Sequence record: OZ346151.1
DNA: 64,000 nucleotides
Strand: one strand, 5' to 3'
From: a phage
This document shows positions 10,828-64,000 of the stretch, piece after piece. Positions within the stretch are counted from its first letter, which is position 1; each line of letters starts with the position of its first letter. The notes beneath the pieces are model-generated. The model searched no databases. It was not told the origin of the DNA and worked only from the letters and a program-made list of their open reading frames with translations. A program made the translations under genes and the position numbers.

Positions 10828-11275
10828 TACTGTAGCGGGAGATTTAATCTCCCTTTTTAAGAGCGGTGCTGGTCACCTGATCCACGGTTGTAACTGCTTT
10901 CATACAATGGGTGCAGGCATAGCGAAAGATATTGCCCGTGAGTTCCCTCAAGCACTGGCAGCCGACAAAGAGACTGCCTATGGTAATCTGGACAAGCTGG
11001 GTATGTTTTCTTGTTGGGAGCATTTTGCCAAGAACAGGGTCGTATATGGAATCAACCTGTATACCCAGTTCTACCCAGGGCCCAATGCTGAATACTTCTC
11101 AATAATGAAAGGTTTTGAGCGAGTCAACGAGGTATTCAAAGGTGTGTCATTGCCGTTCTACATTCCTAAAATTGGATGCGGTATTGGCGGTCTAAAGTGG
11201 GAACATGTAGAAGATGTAATTAATCTTGCAACCACAGATATTGATGTGGTTGTAGTAGAGTACAAAAAGTGTTGA
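10817..11275 (+). CDS. macrodomain protein (TARG1/DarG-like ADP-ribose processing fold)
   Basis: GTG start with SD GAGGAG; motifs HGCNCFHTMGAGIAKDIA and IPKIGCGIGG match macrodomain signature. Confidence 0.6.
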   Translation: MIIDTVAGDLISLFKSGAGHLIHGCNCFHTMGAGIAKDIAREFPQALAADKETAYGNLDKLGMFSCWEHFAKNRVVYGINLYTQFYPGPNAEYFSIMKGFERVNEVFKGVSLPFYIPKIGCGIGGLKWEHVEDVINLATTDIDVVVVEYKKC

Positions 11276-57846: not shown

Positions 57847-58560
57847 TTAAATATACTCTGTTACATCCTTGAAGCTCGAAGGCTTCATAATCTTACCTTT
57901 ACTGTCAAGGAATATAATAACTTTATTACCGTTGTAGAACTCCTCTTTAGCAACGAAACCTTCGTAGCGACCACCAAAACGACGCTCAAGATCTTCAATC
58001 TCTAACTCTATGAGCAATTCAGTAGACATATCTGCACTGGCACCGTGAGAATATCGTAGATGGTTGATCCGTGCAAACTTGCTGTCATTAGATTTGAGAA
58101 CCTTCCGCATCATCCCACACACATCGCCGCGAAGCTGGAACAGCAAAGCTGTTGACAACTCCGCTAAGCGGTAAGCTGACGCTCTTTGCTTGGATGTGTT
58201 TTTCGCAGCGATCAGTGTATCATAGAACTCACCGATCTTGAACTTAAGACCTCGTGGATTATCAAACAGGTTTGACCACTTTTCGTGATTATCATTAACA
58301 AGATAAGCGGCATAACTTGTGACAACGTGAAGATCGCAGGCCTCTTTTAGCAGGTGATCTCCACCATCACCTTTCTCCAGCTCTTCCAAAACCTCATTGA
58401 ACTCTTCCTCAATGAAGCTAAGCTGTAATTCGAATGGTGTGTATGATTTTTTCACTTTAGCTGCCACACGGTTCCAGTTTTCCACCCAGTTGGCAGACCA
58501 AAGGTAGTTTTCAGGCTGAGACAGTTTTTCCAGGTTGTCGATCAGTTTAGTATTCAGCAT
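57847..58560 (-). CDS. hypothetical protein, possible MazG-like nucleotide pyrophosphohydrolase
   Basis: FIEEEFNEVLEELEKGD...EACD weakly resembles MazG EExxE...E..D motif. Confidence 0.35.
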   Translation of the reverse strand: MLNTKLIDNLEKLSQPENYLWSANWVENWNRVAAKVKKSYTPFELQLSFIEEEFNEVLEELEKGDGGDHLLKEACDLHVVTSYAAYLVNDNHEKWSNLFDNPRGLKFKIGEFYDTLIAAKNTSKQRASAYRLAELSTALLFQLRGDVCGMMRKVLKSNDSKFARINHLRYSHGASADMSTELLIELEIEDLERRFGGRYEGFVAKEEFYNGNKVIIFLDSKGKIMKPSSFKDVTEYI

Positions 58561-58573
58561 TAAAGGTCTCCTT

Positions 58574-59335
58574 TTAAAGTTCCATAAAGTTTTCTACAGT
58601 TTCAATAAATGCTTTATCAGAGAAAGCGTCAACAGCACCGTTAAACCATACAGGGATCCCGCGATCCTCATATTGATAAAGGTCGCTACGTGAAATGCCA
58701 CTCCCATCTGCACTCTGCGAGTCATACTTGTTTACAATCAGCAGTTTTGTGCCTTTACAAGTAGCAGGAAACAATTCCCAGTTAAAATTAATAACTGTGT
58801 TAGAACAACCTACTAGGATCACCATATCATTGCTTGTGAGAGATGTCAACAGGTCATACATGTCTGTATACTTAGGAGCAACCTCACCGAAGAACACTAC
58901 ATTGGGCTTAACCCAGGTATACTTGCCTGTATCTACCTCCGTGTATCCGATATTTTTAATTACATCATTACCTTCAGCATCTTCGTAGGTGATTTCAGGC
59001 AAATACCCGTGGACATGTAAAATATCTTCATGTTTTACACCAGCACGCTCCAGCAAATCATCTACATTGGTGGTAAGGTTGATCACACGACCAGACCAGC
59101 GGGAATACCACTCAGCGATCCGAAGATGTGCAAGGTTAGGATCAACACTGCCCAGAGCTACACGACGTGCATTGTAAAAGTCATGCACCTTATAGTAGTT
59201 CTTGGCAAAGGTGTGGATGTTGCACACCTCATCGATGCTGAAATTCTCCCACATTGCAGTGCTACCAGATCGGAAAGTGGGAATACCAGATTCAGCGCTC
59301 AAACCAGCACCGGAGATAATAATCAGTCGTCGCAT
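58574..59335 (-). CDS. Sir2-family (sirtuin-like) NAD-dependent protein, no zinc-ribbon module
   Basis: SGAGLSAESGIPTFRS, TTNVDDLLERAG and HG motifs; no CxxC pairs. Confidence 0.7.
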   Translation of the reverse strand: MRRLIIISGAGLSAESGIPTFRSGSTAMWENFSIDEVCNIHTFAKNYYKVHDFYNARRVALGSVDPNLAHLRIAEWYSRWSGRVINLTTNVDDLLERAGVKHEDILHVHGYLPEITYEDAEGNDVIKNIGYTEVDTGKYTWVKPNVVFFGEVAPKYTDMYDLLTSLTSNDMVILVGCSNTVINFNWELFPATCKGTKLLIVNKYDSQSADGSGISRSDLYQYEDRGIPVWFNGAVDAFSDKAFIETVENFMEL

Positions 59336-59343
59336 AAGTGTCC

Positions 59344-59694
59344 TCAGTAGATGTTTTGTTTAATCTCTATTCCAAACTTCTTGAATGAGTCAGCAGCAAG
59401 CATAAATTTACGAGCTGCCGATGGATTAGAAGTATGCACGAAAATAATCACGTTGTCAATAAGTGGTGGCTTTCCGAATACAAGTTTCTCCTCTAGCGCA
59501 GAGAAGCAGTCGTACCCTTCAAGCACTTCACCTAGATCATTGTCAAAATACCACTCAGATACGCGTCTGTAGAGCTTTCTCTTATCATTAAGAAAATCCA
59601 TAAACTCAGAAGAATTCTTTAGCCACAGAGCGTCTGGGAGTCCATAATCTGACGGATCTCTAAAATCATCAAGCCACACAATCCACTTCTTCAT
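59344..59694 (-). CDS. hypothetical protein
   Basis: Strand-consistent ORF. Confidence 0.5.
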   Translation of the reverse strand: MKKWIVWLDDFRDPSDYGLPDALWLKNSSEFMDFLNDKRKLYRRVSEWYFDNDLGEVLEGYDCFSALEEKLVFGKPPLIDNVIIFVHTSNPSAARKFMLAADSFKKFGIEIKQNIY

Positions 59695-60626
59695 TGCATA
59701 TAGTCCTCGTTGTGGAAATAGTAGTCCAGTATCTCACGACGCTCCTGCTCTAATAAGCAATTCCACACATCTTCTGTATAGTTGCTACGAATAAATTTTA
59801 CCATACCGTAAAACTCTTCGTCAACACGTTTAAAGATATCATCATCCCAAATCTTCCAAGCTTTACCCCTCATTACTGCCTTCCGTGCCAGATAGTATGG
59901 AGACTTGATCTTCAGCTGCAGATCATAAGGGTAGTAAGGCTTACGAATCATATACCCTTCACCTCTTGTTTCTGCAGCTAATTCTTTTGCATAGCTGAAC
60001 GGAATTTCACGCACAGTGTTAGGACGTTTTGCACCAAGGTATTTGGCAATCCCATCTAAAGCTGCTTCTGGTAGCATTATTCCAGAATCATTATATCTGC
60101 AACCTATCAAATATGCGCCATGGTCTTCTTGAACAATATGCGGATCTGAAGGGTGACAAATTTCAAACATGAATGTCATGTTTTCATTGCCCATAACCTT
60201 CTTGATAAGATCTAAATTACCACATTGCTCTTGGATGGTTTCCTTTGCAAGGTTACAATATGGAGAATCAAGAGACCCGGTTGTTGAGAACAATAGGTCA
60301 CCTTTATGAGATGATACCACACCAAGGAATCCGTTCTTTTTCTCTACCGCAGTCACAAGCTTATTGTCAGGCAGGTTGGTGGAGTTTTCTCCCAAGTTAA
60401 ACACTTTTGTGAAGGGCCATGCCACAACATTTCCTTCATTACCTACAACAATGCCTCGGCACTCCAGTAAACGAGGGGACAAATGCCATAAATTGTTGTA
60501 AAATACTTTTCTAGCATATTTATAGATCTTTAACCCGAGATCTGGGTAATACCTACTGGTTACAAGACCTTTGTCAACTAGGTCGTCTGCATTAAAATAC
60601 TTCATTATATGTTCCTCATTTGTCAT
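59691..60626 (-). CDS. RNA ligase (T4 Rnl1-like)
   Basis: LLECRGIVVG resembles T4 Rnl1 ALECRGIMF; motif I EKKNGF (KxDG/KxNG); divergent from pnk. Confidence 0.7.
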   Translation of the reverse strand: MTNEEHIMKYFNADDLVDKGLVTSRYYPDLGLKIYKYARKVFYNNLWHLSPRLLECRGIVVGNEGNVVAWPFTKVFNLGENSTNLPDNKLVTAVEKKNGFLGVVSSHKGDLLFSTTGSLDSPYCNLAKETIQEQCGNLDLIKKVMGNENMTFMFEICHPSDPHIVQEDHGAYLIGCRYNDSGIMLPEAALDGIAKYLGAKRPNTVREIPFSYAKELAAETRGEGYMIRKPYYPYDLQLKIKSPYYLARKAVMRGKAWKIWDDDIFKRVDEEFYGMVKFIRSNYTEDVWNCLLEQERREILDYYFHNEDYMQ

Positions 60627-60669
60627 TTTGTCAGTCTATCCTGCCACACAAATAACCTAGTGTCAACAC

Positions 60670-60698
60670 TTGAAATTAACAAAACAGTTAGGTATACT
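60670..60698 (+). promoter_or_regulatory. sigma70-like promoter in divergent intergenic region
   Basis: TTGAAA, 17-bp spacer, TATACT. Confidence 0.5.
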
Positions 60699-60726
60699 AC
60701 CGTTGAAATTAAAACGGAGGGTCGCT

Positions 60727-61137
60727 ATGTCTAAAATGCTATATATCGTGCGTGGTCTACCAGGGTCTGGCAAATCAACACTGGCAAATGAGCTATCTTT
60801 AGAGGGTCTGTATCCACATTTTGAGAACGACATGTTCTGGTATGACGATGACGGCAATTACAACTGGGATGCAAGTAAAGTAACACTCGCAGCAAAATGG
60901 TGCAAAGATAACGTAGAAGATATGATGCGTATGGGATACGACCGTATCGTGGTAAGTAATACGTTTACAAAAGAAAAACATGTGCAGGAATATGTTGACA
61001 TGGCAATCACTCACGGGTATAGTTATACCGTGATCGTGGTTGAAAACCGCCACGGTAATAAAAGCATTCATGATGTTCCAGACAAGGTTGTGGATCGTAT
61101 GGAACGCCAGCTTAAAAACTGCATTAAACTTAAATGA
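60727..61137 (+). CDS. polynucleotide 5'-kinase (P-loop kinase, T4 Pnk kinase-domain-like)
   Basis: SD GGAGGG; Walker A GLPGSGKST; ~136 aa; next to RNA ligase and phosphatase. Confidence 0.65.
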   Translation: MSKMLYIVRGLPGSGKSTLANELSLEGLYPHFENDMFWYDDDGNYNWDASKVTLAAKWCKDNVEDMMRMGYDRIVVSNTFTKEKHVQEYVDMAITHGYSYTVIVVENRHGNKSIHDVPDKVVDRMERQLKNCIKLK

Positions 61138-61144
61138 GGAATGT

Positions 61145-61699
61145 ATGAAATACTTTGTAACAAGCGACACACACTTTCTCCACCAGCGGGTCATGGAGTT
61201 TGATTCATGTCAAAAACACAGATCTCAGTATGATCACAATCTTGACAGTATGAATGCAGGAATCATCGCCGAGTGGAACTCTGTTGTGTCACCTGCAGAC
61301 ACTGTGTTCCACTTGGGAGATATTGCGTGCACTAATGATAAGAATATCAACAACTTACTTCCAGATATTCTAAATATGTTGAACGGACATATTATTCTTG
61401 TTCGTGGCAACCATGACACAAGGACGACTGTCAGAATTATGAAAGAGTTCGGTCATGAGGTTGTAGATTATTACGAGCTTCGCCACAACAAGAATTTGAT
61501 CTGTATGAGCCATTACCAGTTTGCAAAGTGGAACAGAAAGCCTCACGGATCAGTCCAACTGTTCGGTCATGCTCACGGAACCACACAACAGTTGTTTGGC
61601 AGGCAGCTTGATGTCGGTTGGGATGTGTGGGGGAGACTCTTACCATTAGAAGAGGCATACCGTATTGCAATGAGTTTTGATATTGACAGCAGGGAGTAA
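61145..61699 (+). CDS. calcineurin-like metallophosphoesterase (putative 2',3'/3'-phosphatase)
   Basis: SD GAGGA; motifs SDTHF, GDIAC, GNHD, HAHG. Confidence 0.65.
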   Translation: MKYFVTSDTHFLHQRVMEFDSCQKHRSQYDHNLDSMNAGIIAEWNSVVSPADTVFHLGDIACTNDKNINNLLPDILNMLNGHIILVRGNHDTRTTVRIMKEFGHEVVDYYELRHNKNLICMSHYQFAKWNRKPHGSVQLFGHAHGTTQQLFGRQLDVGWDVWGRLLPLEEAYRIAMSFDIDSRE

Positions 61700-61746
61700 T
61701 CCCTGCTATTTTAAAGAAAATTGCCACACAAGGAGAATCAGGAGAT

Positions 61747-62097
61747 ATGAAAGATGGGGATAAGCTGCTATATCTTAAAGTCCCCCTTGAAATACTATCT
61801 ATGTCAAAAGTTTTGAATGACACAACTGGGGAGGTTGTTGTTCTTGACTTGTATGACAAGATCGTATACTGCTACCTGCACAACTGGTATAAGCTTGGAG
61901 GAAATTCACGCTTCACACCAAGCACAAGGAAAATTGCAGCAGATGTTGGGATAAAGAAAACAAAAGCAGCAGCGTGCGTTAAAACTTTAGAATGTGCAGG
62001 AGTGGTTGAAACATCCACACAAGGGAGAGGTAAAAGATGCACATTTTCCAAAGTTTTGCCACCAGAAGAAGTTATTCGGATGTCAACAACTGGTTAG
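61747..62097 (+). CDS. putative winged-helix DNA-binding protein (initiator or repressor)
   Basis: SD AGGAGA; wHTH-like segment RKIAADVGIKKTKAAACVKTLECAGVVE; followed directly by palindrome array. Confidence 0.5.
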   Translation: MKDGDKLLYLKVPLEILSMSKVLNDTTGEVVVLDLYDKIVYCYLHNWYKLGGNSRFTPSTRKIAADVGIKKTKAAACVKTLECAGVVETSTQGRGKRCTFSKVLPPEEVIRMSTTG

Positions 62098-62173
62098 ACC
62101 AGTAAAAACTTAAATATCTGTACTATAAGGATTCGTATGTTTTATGTTCGCCATGGAACGGATACTATTAACT

Positions 62174-62252
62174 GTCCGTGATACGGACACTACTGTCCGT
62201 CACGCGGACACATCTGCCCGTAATACGGACACTAACTGTCCGTGATACGGAC
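62174..62252. repeat. four phased 15-bp palindromes (iteron/operator array)
   Basis: GTCCGTGATACGGAC (62174), GTCCGTCACGCGGAC (62195), GCCCGTAATACGGAC (62216), GTCCGTGATACGGAC (62238); spacing 21-22 bp. Confidence 0.75.
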
Positions 62253-62261
62253 ACATAAAGA

Positions 62262-62385
62262 ATATAACTAAAATAACTAAATAATAAAAAATAAAAGATC
62301 TAGTACTTATGGTACTAAGTACATATACTTAACTTATGTAGAATATACTAGATCCTAAGTACCATGTTTTAAATTTATTACTTAC
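62262..62385. repeat. AT-rich region with large imperfect palindrome
   Basis: AGATCTAGTACTTATGGTACTAAGTAC...TACTAGATCCTAAGTACCATG inverted symmetry. Confidence 0.55.
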
Positions 62386-62660
62386 TATGGGCAGTGTCGG
62401 CCCTTCATTGGCACTCGCCTACGAGGGGGCGAGATGCCGGGCCTCCTTGGCGCACACAATAACAGAAGTTCATACATGCAGGTCTGTTAACATGTGTGGG
62501 AGCGAAGCGATAGCGCAGGCCAAAGGCCGAGCACTGATGTGGACCACCGACGAAAGCTTGCCAGCGCCGTAAGGAGTCGGTTGAGAGTCTCCCGCGCGAG
62601 CTTGGATGAAGTTTATGTGTGGAAACTGACAAGAAGGCCCCTAAATCGCTCCACAGCTAT
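62386..62660 (+). ncRNA. candidate structured non-coding RNA (GC-rich, ORF-poor)
   Basis: Visibly GC-richer than flanks; several short stems (e.g. CTCGCC...GGCGAG); no RBS-supported ORF; strand undetermined. Confidence 0.3.
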
Positions 62661-62758
62661 ATAAACTATACCAGGTAATGCAATCGCACCAGTTTGATAG
62701 AAAAGCTCGTTACAAAGCGATACAGTGAGTTTTTCTATAACTTGAAGAGGAGGCAGCT

Positions 62759-63337
62759 ATGGGTTCACGCAAAGATGACCGTGAAAAGATTGCAAAACGT
62801 TATCAGAATGAAGAACAGATGGAGAAAACTTTCAAGTGGAAGCCAGGTTTCCAGCGTAATCATTCTAACGCTCGTGATCGTAAGCATCCGGATAAGTGGC
62901 TAACACCGCCAAATGATGGCATGCAGGTTGGGGATGAGAAGGAGATGTCGCCTGGAAAAGATGGCAACTACATTCGCACTAAGGACGCTGGTCCAAAGGA
63001 TGACAGCTATCTTGTAGATAAGGTTCTTGATGGTATCAATGTAGATGTTGACACTGCACGAAACCTTTTTCTTGGGTGGTATCGCACAGGTTTTTTCGAC
63101 ATCAAGGCTATTCGTCGTGTTTGTGATATTAAAAAGTCTGCATATGATGACGACTCGTTACATCGCACCCTGAGACAATATTCAGAAAGATATGGTCATC
63201 CGGTTATCACTCTTGACGATGTTAACGAAGTGATGTATCATGCAGAGGTTGTTGCAGGAAGATTCGGTGATGCATATCTTGATATCCTTTCTGCAAAGGA
63301 TGAGGTAATGTTAAATAAGATTTACTATGAACGCTGA
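62759..63337 (+). CDS. hypothetical protein
   Basis: SD GAAGAGGAGG before ATG. Confidence 0.55.
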   Translation: MGSRKDDREKIAKRYQNEEQMEKTFKWKPGFQRNHSNARDRKHPDKWLTPPNDGMQVGDEKEMSPGKDGNYIRTKDAGPKDDSYLVDKVLDGINVDVDTARNLFLGWYRTGFFDIKAIRRVCDIKKSAYDDDSLHRTLRQYSERYGHPVITLDDVNEVMYHAEVVAGRFGDAYLDILSAKDEVMLNKIYYER

Positions 63338-63536
63338 GGAGCGCTTAATGAACAACCCGGTAGCAAAGAACTGTAATAAGTTCAACAAGTCTGCAATTCA
63401 CACTGACAGGAAAAAGAGCTGGTCTCCTGACATTGACGAGGAGCTTGAGAGTTACTTTGAAGACCTGGTCACTAATGCAGATGAGGTTGCGATTAAAGAA
63501 TACGCAGACAGGAAGGATAAGGCCGGAATCTGTTGA
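63327..63536 (+). CDS. hypothetical protein
   Basis: Overlapping start (coupled). Confidence 0.45.
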   Translation: MNAEERLMNNPVAKNCNKFNKSAIHTDRKKSWSPDIDEELESYFEDLVTNADEVAIKEYADRKDKAGIC

Positions 63537-63612
63537 CAAAAATAGTGTTACCTGATAAGATCTGCAATATGATGTGATGCAATTTTAACTTACGAGGTCT
63601 ACAGGTAATGCT

Positions 63613-63855
63613 ATGTTTAAGGTTAAGCTCGTTTTTCGTTCCATGAATGAGGATTATTTAGAAGATGAAGGTGAATTTCGTGCACTGGATGATGCAATAG
63701 ATTTTGCCAACGACTTAGCTTGTATGAATACGGGTTATGGGCTATGCTGTTGGGATGGTGGTGTTCAGATCGGTGATAGCAAGATCTTCTACTTCTACCC
63801 TGAACCTGATAACAAACAAATTAAGTATGTTTTATTTATTTGTGCTTTACAATGA
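63613..63855 (+). CDS. hypothetical protein
   Basis: Strand-consistent ORF. Confidence 0.45.
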   Translation: MFKVKLVFRSMNEDYLEDEGEFRALDDAIDFANDLACMNTGYGLCCWDGGVQIGDSKIFYFYPEPDNKQIKYVLFICALQ

Positions 63856-64000
63856 GGTTGTTTTCGTGTATCATGATGAATATCCAATTTAAAGATGAAT
63901 TTGATGGCTTTATCTCCGGATGCTTTGAAACAGGGTTCGGAGAAGGCTGAGTTCCCCTTAGAGGGCTTGATAGTGCACCACACTTAAAATGGTAGGGGCA

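Follow-up and report, generated by a model that had tools for sequence, protein, structure and literature searches.

A candidate RNA heal-and-seal locus of an rV5-like phage with a stand-alone kinase and a separate metallophosphoesterase

The window analysed here, a stretch of 64,000 nucleotides from the phage sequence record OZ346151.1, carries near its right end an Rnl1-family RNA ligase gene that is transcribed divergently from the genes of a polynucleotide-kinase-like P-loop kinase and a calcineurin-type metallophosphoesterase (MPE). We propose that this locus is a phage RNA heal-and-seal set which most likely restores tRNAs nicked by metal-independent host ribonucleases, and we give this reading a probability of roughly 0.6. 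The heal-and-seal role is well supported by genomic context, namely by the linkage of the genes in 85 viral loci, by their permuted orders and by the existence of kinase–ligase fusions. A preliminary description, made from the DNA letters alone, had proposed an RNA repair module at this place, and its interpretation is partly supported by the present analysis. The three open reading frames (ORFs) lie where it had located them, and the motifs that it had quoted (LLECRGIVVG and EKKNGF for the ligase, GLPGSGKST for the kinase, GDIAC and GNHD for the MPE) are all present in the translations. The profile searches suggested there as a check placed every one of the three proteins above the Pfam gathering thresholds (28.3 bits for RNA_lig_T4_1, 27 for AAA_33, 27 for Metallophos_2 and 21.5 for Metallophos), and they match PHROG families with E-values between 1e-52 and 1e-65. 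The module of ligase, kinase and MPE was correctly recognised but drawn too small, as the ligase operon also holds genes for a cyclic-phosphate-processing receiver-like protein (cREC), a Sir2-family protein and a MazG-like pyrophosphohydrolase (Table 1).

The neighbourhood is already known as a predicted RNA-repair system from published in silico work, and it is also annotated in public records. Iyer, Burroughs, Aravind et al. 2022 (PMC9503650, section 3.7.3) described a sirtuin-centred predicted neighbourhood of the V5 type, which corresponds to the present locus in a phage with 97% identity. All six of its genes, encoding the sirtuin, the T4-like ligase, cREC, the kinase, MazG and the calcineurin-like phosphoesterase, are found within positions 57847–61699 of the window. 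In that description the sirtuin is central and the phosphoesterase is "occasional", whereas in our ligase-seeded census the kinase and the MPE are common and Sir2 and cREC are lineage-specific; both studies are computational. The additions made here are this census with the kinase and the MPE as regular partners of the ligase, the kinase–ligase fusions, the placement of the MPE near aq_1665 and the asymmetry of the linkage.

The product of the ligase gene matches Pfam RNA_lig_T4_1 with 55.4 bits (1e-14) and phrog_562 with an E-value of 1.9e-65. The profile of its family (29 homologues, ~45% identity) retrieves T4 Rnl1 (2C5U) with an E-value of 3.3e-13; single-sequence phmmer searches of the PDB were uninformative for both the ligase and the kinase, for which family profiles were required. 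The nucleotidyl-transferase motifs I, III, IV and V are present in the 29–30 homologues as K96-N-G99, E155, E223-G224 and K239/K241, and K96, E155, E223-G224 and K239/K241 align with K99, E159, E227-G228 and K240/K242 of T4 Rnl1. The Rnl1-specific N-terminal element is present as well: "ECRG" with R57 and "PFTKVFN" with K74 and F76 match "ECRGI" and "PMEKFFN" of the T4 enzyme and are invariant. Thus R57, K74, F76, K96 (motif I, KxNG), G99, E155, E223, G224, K239 and K241 are invariant in the family. In T4 Rnl1, the residues R54, K75 and F77 are reportedly essential according to mutagenesis in the Shuman laboratory. The AlphaFold2 model of the ligase has a predicted local distance difference test (pLDDT) score of 89.5, and its closest folds in Foldseek are T4 Rnl1 (2C5U, 1.6e-12) and the ligase domain of fungal Trl1 (Trl1-LIG, 1.7e-12 to 4.7e-12), followed by the weaker matches Rnl3 (6e-11 and weaker), Rnl5 (~3e-6) and Rnl2 (~2e-5). 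The earlier naming of a T4 Rnl1-like ligase is therefore borne out by Pfam, by the profile match to 2C5U, by the invariant motifs and by the fold.

The ligase is a member of a distinct, shorter Rnl1 subfamily and not an RnlA orthologue; its score against the NCBIfam equivalog TIGR02308 (T4 RnlA orthologues) is 38.4 bits, far under the cut-off of 242. The tRNA-specificity domain T4_Rnl1_C (PF20819) gave no match in the ligase at E≤0.01, and the C-terminal helical region of the model comprises only ~65 aa; a longer relative of the ligase (L121) does match PF20819. The subfamily comprises 1,678 clusters at E≤1e-5 and 757 phage records, and it is essentially viral. Among 185,579 species genomes a single match was found, on a 3.4-kb contig of a metagenome-assembled genome, so that no cellular operon is available for comparison. 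The start of the ligase gene is most likely at position 60605, since GAGG lies 8 nt upstream of it, the GenBank start is the same and a relative has no counterpart of the upstream ATG at 60626.

The kinase gene starts at 60727 behind a GGAGGG ribosome-binding site. Its product matches AAA_33 (42.5 bits, 1e-10), phrog_2071 (3.4e-58) and the "polynucleotide kinase" family phrog_505 (2e-10). The top PDB match of the family profile, over the full length, is the kinase domain of T4 Pnk (1LY1/1LTQ, 6.5e-10), followed by PSTK, Pnkp1, mammalian PNKP and CthPnk. The residues K16/S17 and D35 are invariant and align with K15/S16 and D35 of T4 Pnk. Of the arginines that contact substrate and ATP in T4 Pnk (R38, R126), the first has no arginine at its equivalent position; the lid "ENRHGNKSIH", a segment not conserved in all subgroups, has an arginine and a lysine near the positions of T4 R122/R126. 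The fused C-terminal HAD (DxDxT) 3′-phosphatase domain is absent: the protein of 136 aa is a kinase domain alone, and the best 120 homologues retrieved are likewise only stand-alone proteins of ~130 aa. The profile match to 1LY1 and the length of the protein confirm what had been described as a separate P-loop polynucleotide kinase without a HAD phosphatase.

The MPE gene starts at 61145, and the GAGG in front of it overlaps the kinase stop codon. The kinase–MPE pair is probably translationally coupled, because only 7 nt separate the kinase stop from the MPE start. The MPE matches Metallophos_2 with 28.4 bits and Metallophos with 27.0 bits. Its metal-ligand motifs D8, H10, G58-D59, G88-N89-H90, H123 and G141-H142-x-H144 are invariant, the structure model is confident and the full binuclear-metal signature is present, in agreement with the separate calcineurin-type enzyme recognised earlier. 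The protein shows specific similarity to Aquifex aq_1665 (PDB 1XM7) and also carries the clade-specific DVGxD motif. It lies outside the lambda-phosphatase-like clade to which the phosphatase domain of bacterial Pnkp belongs. The MPE is thus placed in the aq_1665-like clade, an orphan family, rather than in the Pnkp/lambda clade. The phosphatase had been called unusual. This stands insofar as an MPE is found instead of a HAD domain, but the arrangement is not unprecedented, because bacterial Pnkp also heals 3′ ends with an MPE.

To describe the linkage of these genes, a ligase-seeded set of 85 loci was assembled from four annotated phages, 80 IMG/VR contigs and the copy of the locus in the record of Escherichia phage isim. 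All ORFs of these loci were searched with iterated hidden Markov models built from the window proteins, and genes within 8 kb of the ligase were counted as partners. The kinase was found in 80 of the 85 loci and the MPE in 67, followed by a DNA ligase (48), cREC (15), the MazG-like protein (15) and Sir2 (12). When the ligases were clustered at 55% identity, 30 clusters were obtained, of which 26 contain the kinase, 26 contain the MPE and 23 contain both genes. This census indicates that the ligase–kinase–MPE triad is the conserved core; cREC, Sir2 and the MazG-like gene are additions confined to Vequintavirinae-like lineages. The most frequent gene order is MPE-Rnl-Kin (30 loci), which in its tight form also occurs in the annotated phage phi92 and in annotated Aeromonas and Vibrio phages. 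It is followed by Kin-Rnl-MPE (12 loci), and the orders Rnl-MPE-Kin and Rnl-cREC-Kin-Sir2 occur too. The distance to the ligase is at most 50 nt for 52 kinase genes and 23 MPE genes. The orders are thus permuted while adjacency is kept, as is characteristic of genes selected to stay linked. The genes point in one direction in every arrangement but that of the rV5 type, whose inverted Kin-MPE pair is oriented away from the ligase. In 13 loci (L039, L041, L045–L047, L050–L052 and L055–L059; for example L059, 7530–8825) the kinase and the ligase form a single polypeptide of ~430 aa with the kinase at the N-terminus (AAA_33 at 15–114, RNA_lig_T4_1 at 183–366). These fusion loci have no MPE within 8 kb.

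The analysis shows that the genes are present with intact catalytic motifs and assignable folds, that their linkage is conserved and that kinase and ligase can be fused. We infer that the substrate of the system is RNA, that the MPE acts at the 3′ ends and that the purpose is counter-defence. The substrates would be host or phage-encoded tRNAs with 2′,3′-cyclic phosphate and 5′-OH ends. In the first step, the stand-alone Pnk-like kinase would phosphorylate the 5′-OH. The second step would be catalysed by the MPE, which would open and remove the 2′,3′-cyclic or 3′-phosphate to give a 3′-OH. In the third step, the Rnl1-family ligase would seal the 3′-OH to the 5′-phosphate via lysyl-AMP at K96. 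A sigma-70-type promoter, oriented away from the operon of the ligase, would drive the kinase and MPE genes. In the rV5 lineage, cREC, Sir2 and the MazG-like protein may add a second, NAD-dependent route at the 3′ end. Homology, fusion and synteny give good support to the ligase and kinase steps.

A close parallel to the proposed system is offered by T4 Pnkp (PseT) and Rnl1 (gp63), which repair tRNA and so counter the anticodon nuclease PrrC by the same logic of 5′ kinase, 3′ healing and Rnl1-family ligase; T4 and the isim-type phage are both lytic on E. coli. In contrast to T4, the kinase of the locus has no fused HAD domain, and a separate binuclear MPE is the candidate for the work at the 3′ end. 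The ligase has 304 aa compared with 374 aa in T4 and lacks T4_Rnl1_C, and the genes, as read from the sequence, are clustered at the locus. The bacterial Pnkp of C. thermocellum likewise combines a P-loop kinase, a calcineurin-type MPE and an ATP-dependent ligase, and its MPE heals 2′,3′-cyclic and 3′-phosphate ends of RNA (Keppetipola and Shuman 2007, PMC2190708). A 2′,3′-cyclic phosphodiesterase activity is also described for lambda phosphatase (PMC2190708). Unlike in CthPnkp, the three activities are encoded at the locus by separate genes and not by one polypeptide, and the relatives show only kinase–ligase fusions. As for Hen1, no methyltransferase is present among the annotated neighbours of isim and of the four annotated-phage loci, where no search aimed at Hen1 was made. 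Calcineurin-like phosphatases have been noted in the RNA repair of a few jumbo phages (PMC7824862). A 2025 Pakpunavirus paper remarks that the Pnk beside this ligase has no 3′-phosphatase domain; the MPE is not connected with it there. A search of the literature on rV5-like and Pakpunavirus phages for experimental work on these proteins found genome annotations and this one remark on Pnk only.

The MPE step is the weakest link of the proposed pathway, the evidence for it being synteny and the CthPnkp precedent, and several observations weigh against it. The linkage is asymmetric. In an MPE-seeded set of 80 viral loci, collected by a pattern scan built from a narrower MPE alignment, a ligase is found within 8 kb in only 20 loci, which is the reason why the MPE assignment is the weakest, and a kinase in 22. 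The nearest MPEs outside the rV5 group (62–64% identity) have neither gene nearby. The MPE family far exceeds the ligase clade in size, with 1,356 phage records and 7,933 cluster representatives at E≤1e-30, and it includes Staphylococcus, Listeria, Enterococcus and Bacillus phages without a ligase match. Furthermore, no fusion of the MPE with a kinase or a ligase was found among 150 representatives, in which the only long proteins are a tandem duplication and two intein-containing proteins. The asymmetric linkage limits the confidence in the role of the MPE. In loci that lack the ligase, Pfam scans of 20 genes flanking the MPE gave no helpful context, their matches being one DnaB-like helicase and one KTSC domain. 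It speaks in favour of the MPE step that members of this MPE clade recur in distantly related large phages, in some of them as the next gene after another AAA_33 kinase and in others in the vicinity of a longer, T4-like Rnl1 gene. The pairing therefore arose or persisted with different partner subfamilies.

The most serious alternative is the NAD-dependent clean-up of 2′,3′-cyclic phosphate ends proposed by Iyer et al. 2022 (PMC9503650), for which the other genes of the ligase operon are relevant. The cREC start overlaps the ligase stop (−4 nt), and the following gaps are 8 nt between cREC and Sir2 and 13 nt between Sir2 and the MazG-like gene. The product of the cREC gene, a family introduced by Iyer et al. 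2021 (PMC7824862), matches PF20274 (9.1e-14) and phrog_1479 (6.1e-33), and its residues D9, D10, D51 and D53 are invariant. It is predicted to be a cyclic phosphodiesterase (PMC7824862, PMC9503650). The Sir2-family protein matches Pfam SIR2 (6.9e-28) and phrog_2162 (1.5e-108) with the motifs GAGxS...GIPxFR, TTNVDD and H109-G110 invariant, and it has been proposed as a KptA/Tpt1-like remover of the 2′-phosphate (PMC9503650). The MazG-like protein matches phrog_671 (5.7e-22) and has no Pfam match; MazG is listed in the V5-type neighbourhood (PMC9503650). By this route, proposed in PMC9503650 and PMC7824862, cREC would open the cyclic phosphate to a 2′-phosphate and Sir2 would move the latter onto ADP-ribose. 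The MPE would then be accessory, acting on the ADP-ribose cyclic-phosphate by-product or on linear phosphates, and would not be the primary RNA-end phosphatase.

The co-operonic position of cREC, Sir2 and the MazG-like gene with the ligase and the conservation of their predicted catalytic residues speak for the NAD-dependent route. So does the fold of the ligase, which matches fungal Trl1-LIG, an enzyme that requires a 2′-phosphate, as well as T4 Rnl1 (1.7e-12 compared with 1.6e-12). Tpt1 and Trl1 of fungi and plants form a related system. Kinase–ligase fusions occur in both systems, and the sequence of cyclic phosphodiesterase and NAD-dependent 2′-phosphate removal parallels the proposed cREC and Sir2 steps. 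The Trl1 system employs a 2H cyclic phosphodiesterase and the ART-fold Tpt1, whereas the candidates at the locus are cREC or the MPE, and a sirtuin. However, Sir2 and cREC accompany the ligase in only 12 and 15 of the 85 loci, compared with 67 for the MPE, which means that most phages with this ligase dispense with Sir2 and cREC yet keep the MPE. Moreover, no sirtuin has been shown to act on an RNA 2′-phosphate, and cREC is described as uncharacterised (PMC9503650). We therefore regard this route as the principal 3′ pathway as unlikely. Just as doubtful is a six-gene island in which two alternative 3′ routes lead into one ligase, the MPE giving a 2′,3′-diol, and cREC giving a 2′-phosphate that is processed by the sirtuin with NAD.

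A role of the kinase and the MPE at DNA ends or on nucleotides, within a replication and nucleotide-metabolism block, is quite improbable; on this reading, their nearness to the RNA ligase would reflect early or middle co-expression. Fusions of the kinase with the RNA ligase exist, the kinase and the MPE abut the RNA ligase and not the DNA ligase in most loci, and a DNA ligase is found near the MPE in only 15 of the 80 MPE-seeded loci. A function of the MPE unrelated to RNA ends, either in the destruction of cyclic (oligo)nucleotide immune signals of the host or as a lambda-type protein phosphatase, seems somewhat less probable still. Its tight, order-permuted synteny with the ligase and the kinase in 23 of the 30 ligase clusters and the recurrence of Kin-MPE pairs argue against such a function, and the flanks that were scanned showed no link with a signalling-related gene. 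Tail-fibre attachment, the second function of T4 gp63, is very improbable as the main role of the ligase-like protein and was rejected, because it is based on annotation transfer alone ("RNA ligase 1 and tail attachment protein"; category "tail" of phrog_562), whereas the gene lies among those of nucleic-acid enzymes and not of morphogenesis, its nucleotidyl-transferase residues are invariant across ~45%-identical homologues and some phages encode it as a fusion with a kinase; a single protein could, however, have both functions.

The cleavage of tRNA is a common anti-phage strategy, used by PrrC, RloC, PARIS, retron effectors, Schlafen, DARNA, Cas12a3 and others. To our knowledge, phage repair counter-measures other than T4 Pnkp/Rnl1 are essentially uncharacterised. 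Hundreds of phages with sequenced genomes carry the ligase–kinase–MPE set; they infect Escherichia, Klebsiella, Salmonella, Pseudomonas, Vibrio, Aeromonas and Acinetobacter, and therapy candidates are among them. If the aq_1665-like MPE is the missing 3′-phosphatase, a very large orphan family would obtain a function and tRNase-based defences which these phages withstand would be predicted. If the island with two routes is real, it would provide the first activities for two orphan families, the aq_1665-like MPEs and cREC, as well as a new RNA 2′-phosphotransferase activity for a sirtuin, and it would explain the hundreds of phage Pnk-like kinases without a phosphatase domain.

The 3.2 kb spanning the locus are 100% identical to Escherichia phage isim (MN850597.1, Vequintavirus, rV5-like). 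About 120 further rV5-like records are 97–99% identical over the 3.2 kb around the locus, including phage V5 with 97.4%. In the isim record, seven clustered tRNA genes (Arg, Tyr, Ser, one undetermined, Thr, Met and Pro; L001, 11635–12446) are found ~3.5 kb downstream of the repair genes, which corresponds to ~600 nt past the right end of the window and was counted in favour of RNA repair. ARAGORN found no tRNA genes within the window itself, and an Rfam scan of 59000–64000 gave nothing credible. Mechanical ORF calling delimits the ligase as 59691–60626 (−), the kinase as 60670–61137 (+) and the MPE as 61040–61699 (+). The GenBank names of the three genes vary and include "RNA ligase 1 and tail attachment protein", "polynucleotide kinase", "ATPase" and "phosphoesterase".

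Table 1. Features of the locus with their positions in the 64,000-nt window
Feature	Position	Strand	Remarks
Rnl1-family ATP-dependent RNA ligase, 304 aa	59691..60605	-	ORF reaches alternative ATG 60626; PF09511, phrog_562
Divergent intergenic region	60606..60726	.	promoter scan and direct reading of the sequence
Stand-alone polynucleotide-kinase-like P-loop kinase, 136 aa	60727..61137	+	AAA_33, phrog_2071
Calcineurin-type binuclear MPE, 184 aa, aq_1665-like clade, candidate 3′ healing enzyme	61145..61699	+	
cREC (cyclic-phosphate-processing receiver-like) protein	59344..59694	-	PF20274, phrog_1479
Sir2-family protein, 253 aa	58574..59335	-	Pfam SIR2, phrog_2162
MazG-like nucleotide pyrophosphohydrolase, final gene of the ligase operon	57847..58560	-	phrog_671

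The promoter scan recovered the sigma70-like site on the plus strand of the divergent region that had been described before (60670–60698, TTGAAA-17-TATACT, 10/12 match). The specificity of the scan is weak, with 14 sites compared with 8.6 ± 3.1 in shuffles. A relative whose intergenic region is 74% identical has TTGACA-17-TAATAT at the same position, and this conservation of the −35/−10 position in a diverged relative supports a real sigma-70-like promoter for the kinase and the MPE. A perfect minus-strand TTGACA (60667–60662) lies back to back with the plus-strand −35 (60670–75), and the block GCCACACA...GTCAACACTTGA (60662–60675) is conserved in the diverged relative. No good minus-strand −10 follows this TTGACA.

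Two genes of the locus are mislabelled in the public annotation of isim: isim_136, the kinase, is named "putative phosphoesterase", and isim_140, the MazG-like pyrophosphohydrolase, is named "putative Sir2-like protein". Between 18 and 23 "Campylobacter phage" records (host C. jejuni) are 97–99% identical to the E. coli rV5-like locus; the host is odd, and mislabelling or contamination may be the cause. Among the MPE homologues, many end in a conserved ...DHH, which the rV5-type MPE, ending in ...SFDIDSRE, lacks. Two homologues (P0386, 494 aa, and P0431, 498 aa) carry an insert of ~280 aa exactly inside the GHxH motif (HGHC...HxTGN[SC]HG), which looks like an intein with a core of homing-endonuclease size, and P0325 is a tandem duplication of the MPE.

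In the ligase-seeded set, NAD-salvage genes occur in many lineages within 8 kb of the RNA ligase, NadV/Nampt in 43 and Prs-like genes in 38 of the 85 loci (for example L002, 846–3544, and L005, 8546–12310). Macro-domain and RelA/SpoT-like genes are also frequent near the ligase (L002–L085). No NadV or Prs homologue is present in the window; at 10835–11071 it has a tblastn match to a macro-domain protein of Pseudomonas phage Y1-MI (36% over 81 aa, 1.5e-9).

The cumulative GC skew has its minimum at ~60 kb, where the direction of transcription switches. Further downstream, at 61747–62097, a small helix-turn-helix (HTH) protein is encoded (DUF6945/HTH_36; phrog_12838, "replication initiation protein"). 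Four tandem iterons of 21–22 nt, each with the palindrome TGTCCGTnAnnCGGACA, follow 70 nt downstream of this gene at 62169–62254, and an AT-rich stretch (62278–62384) lies after them. The iteron array is a candidate replication origin or operator array.

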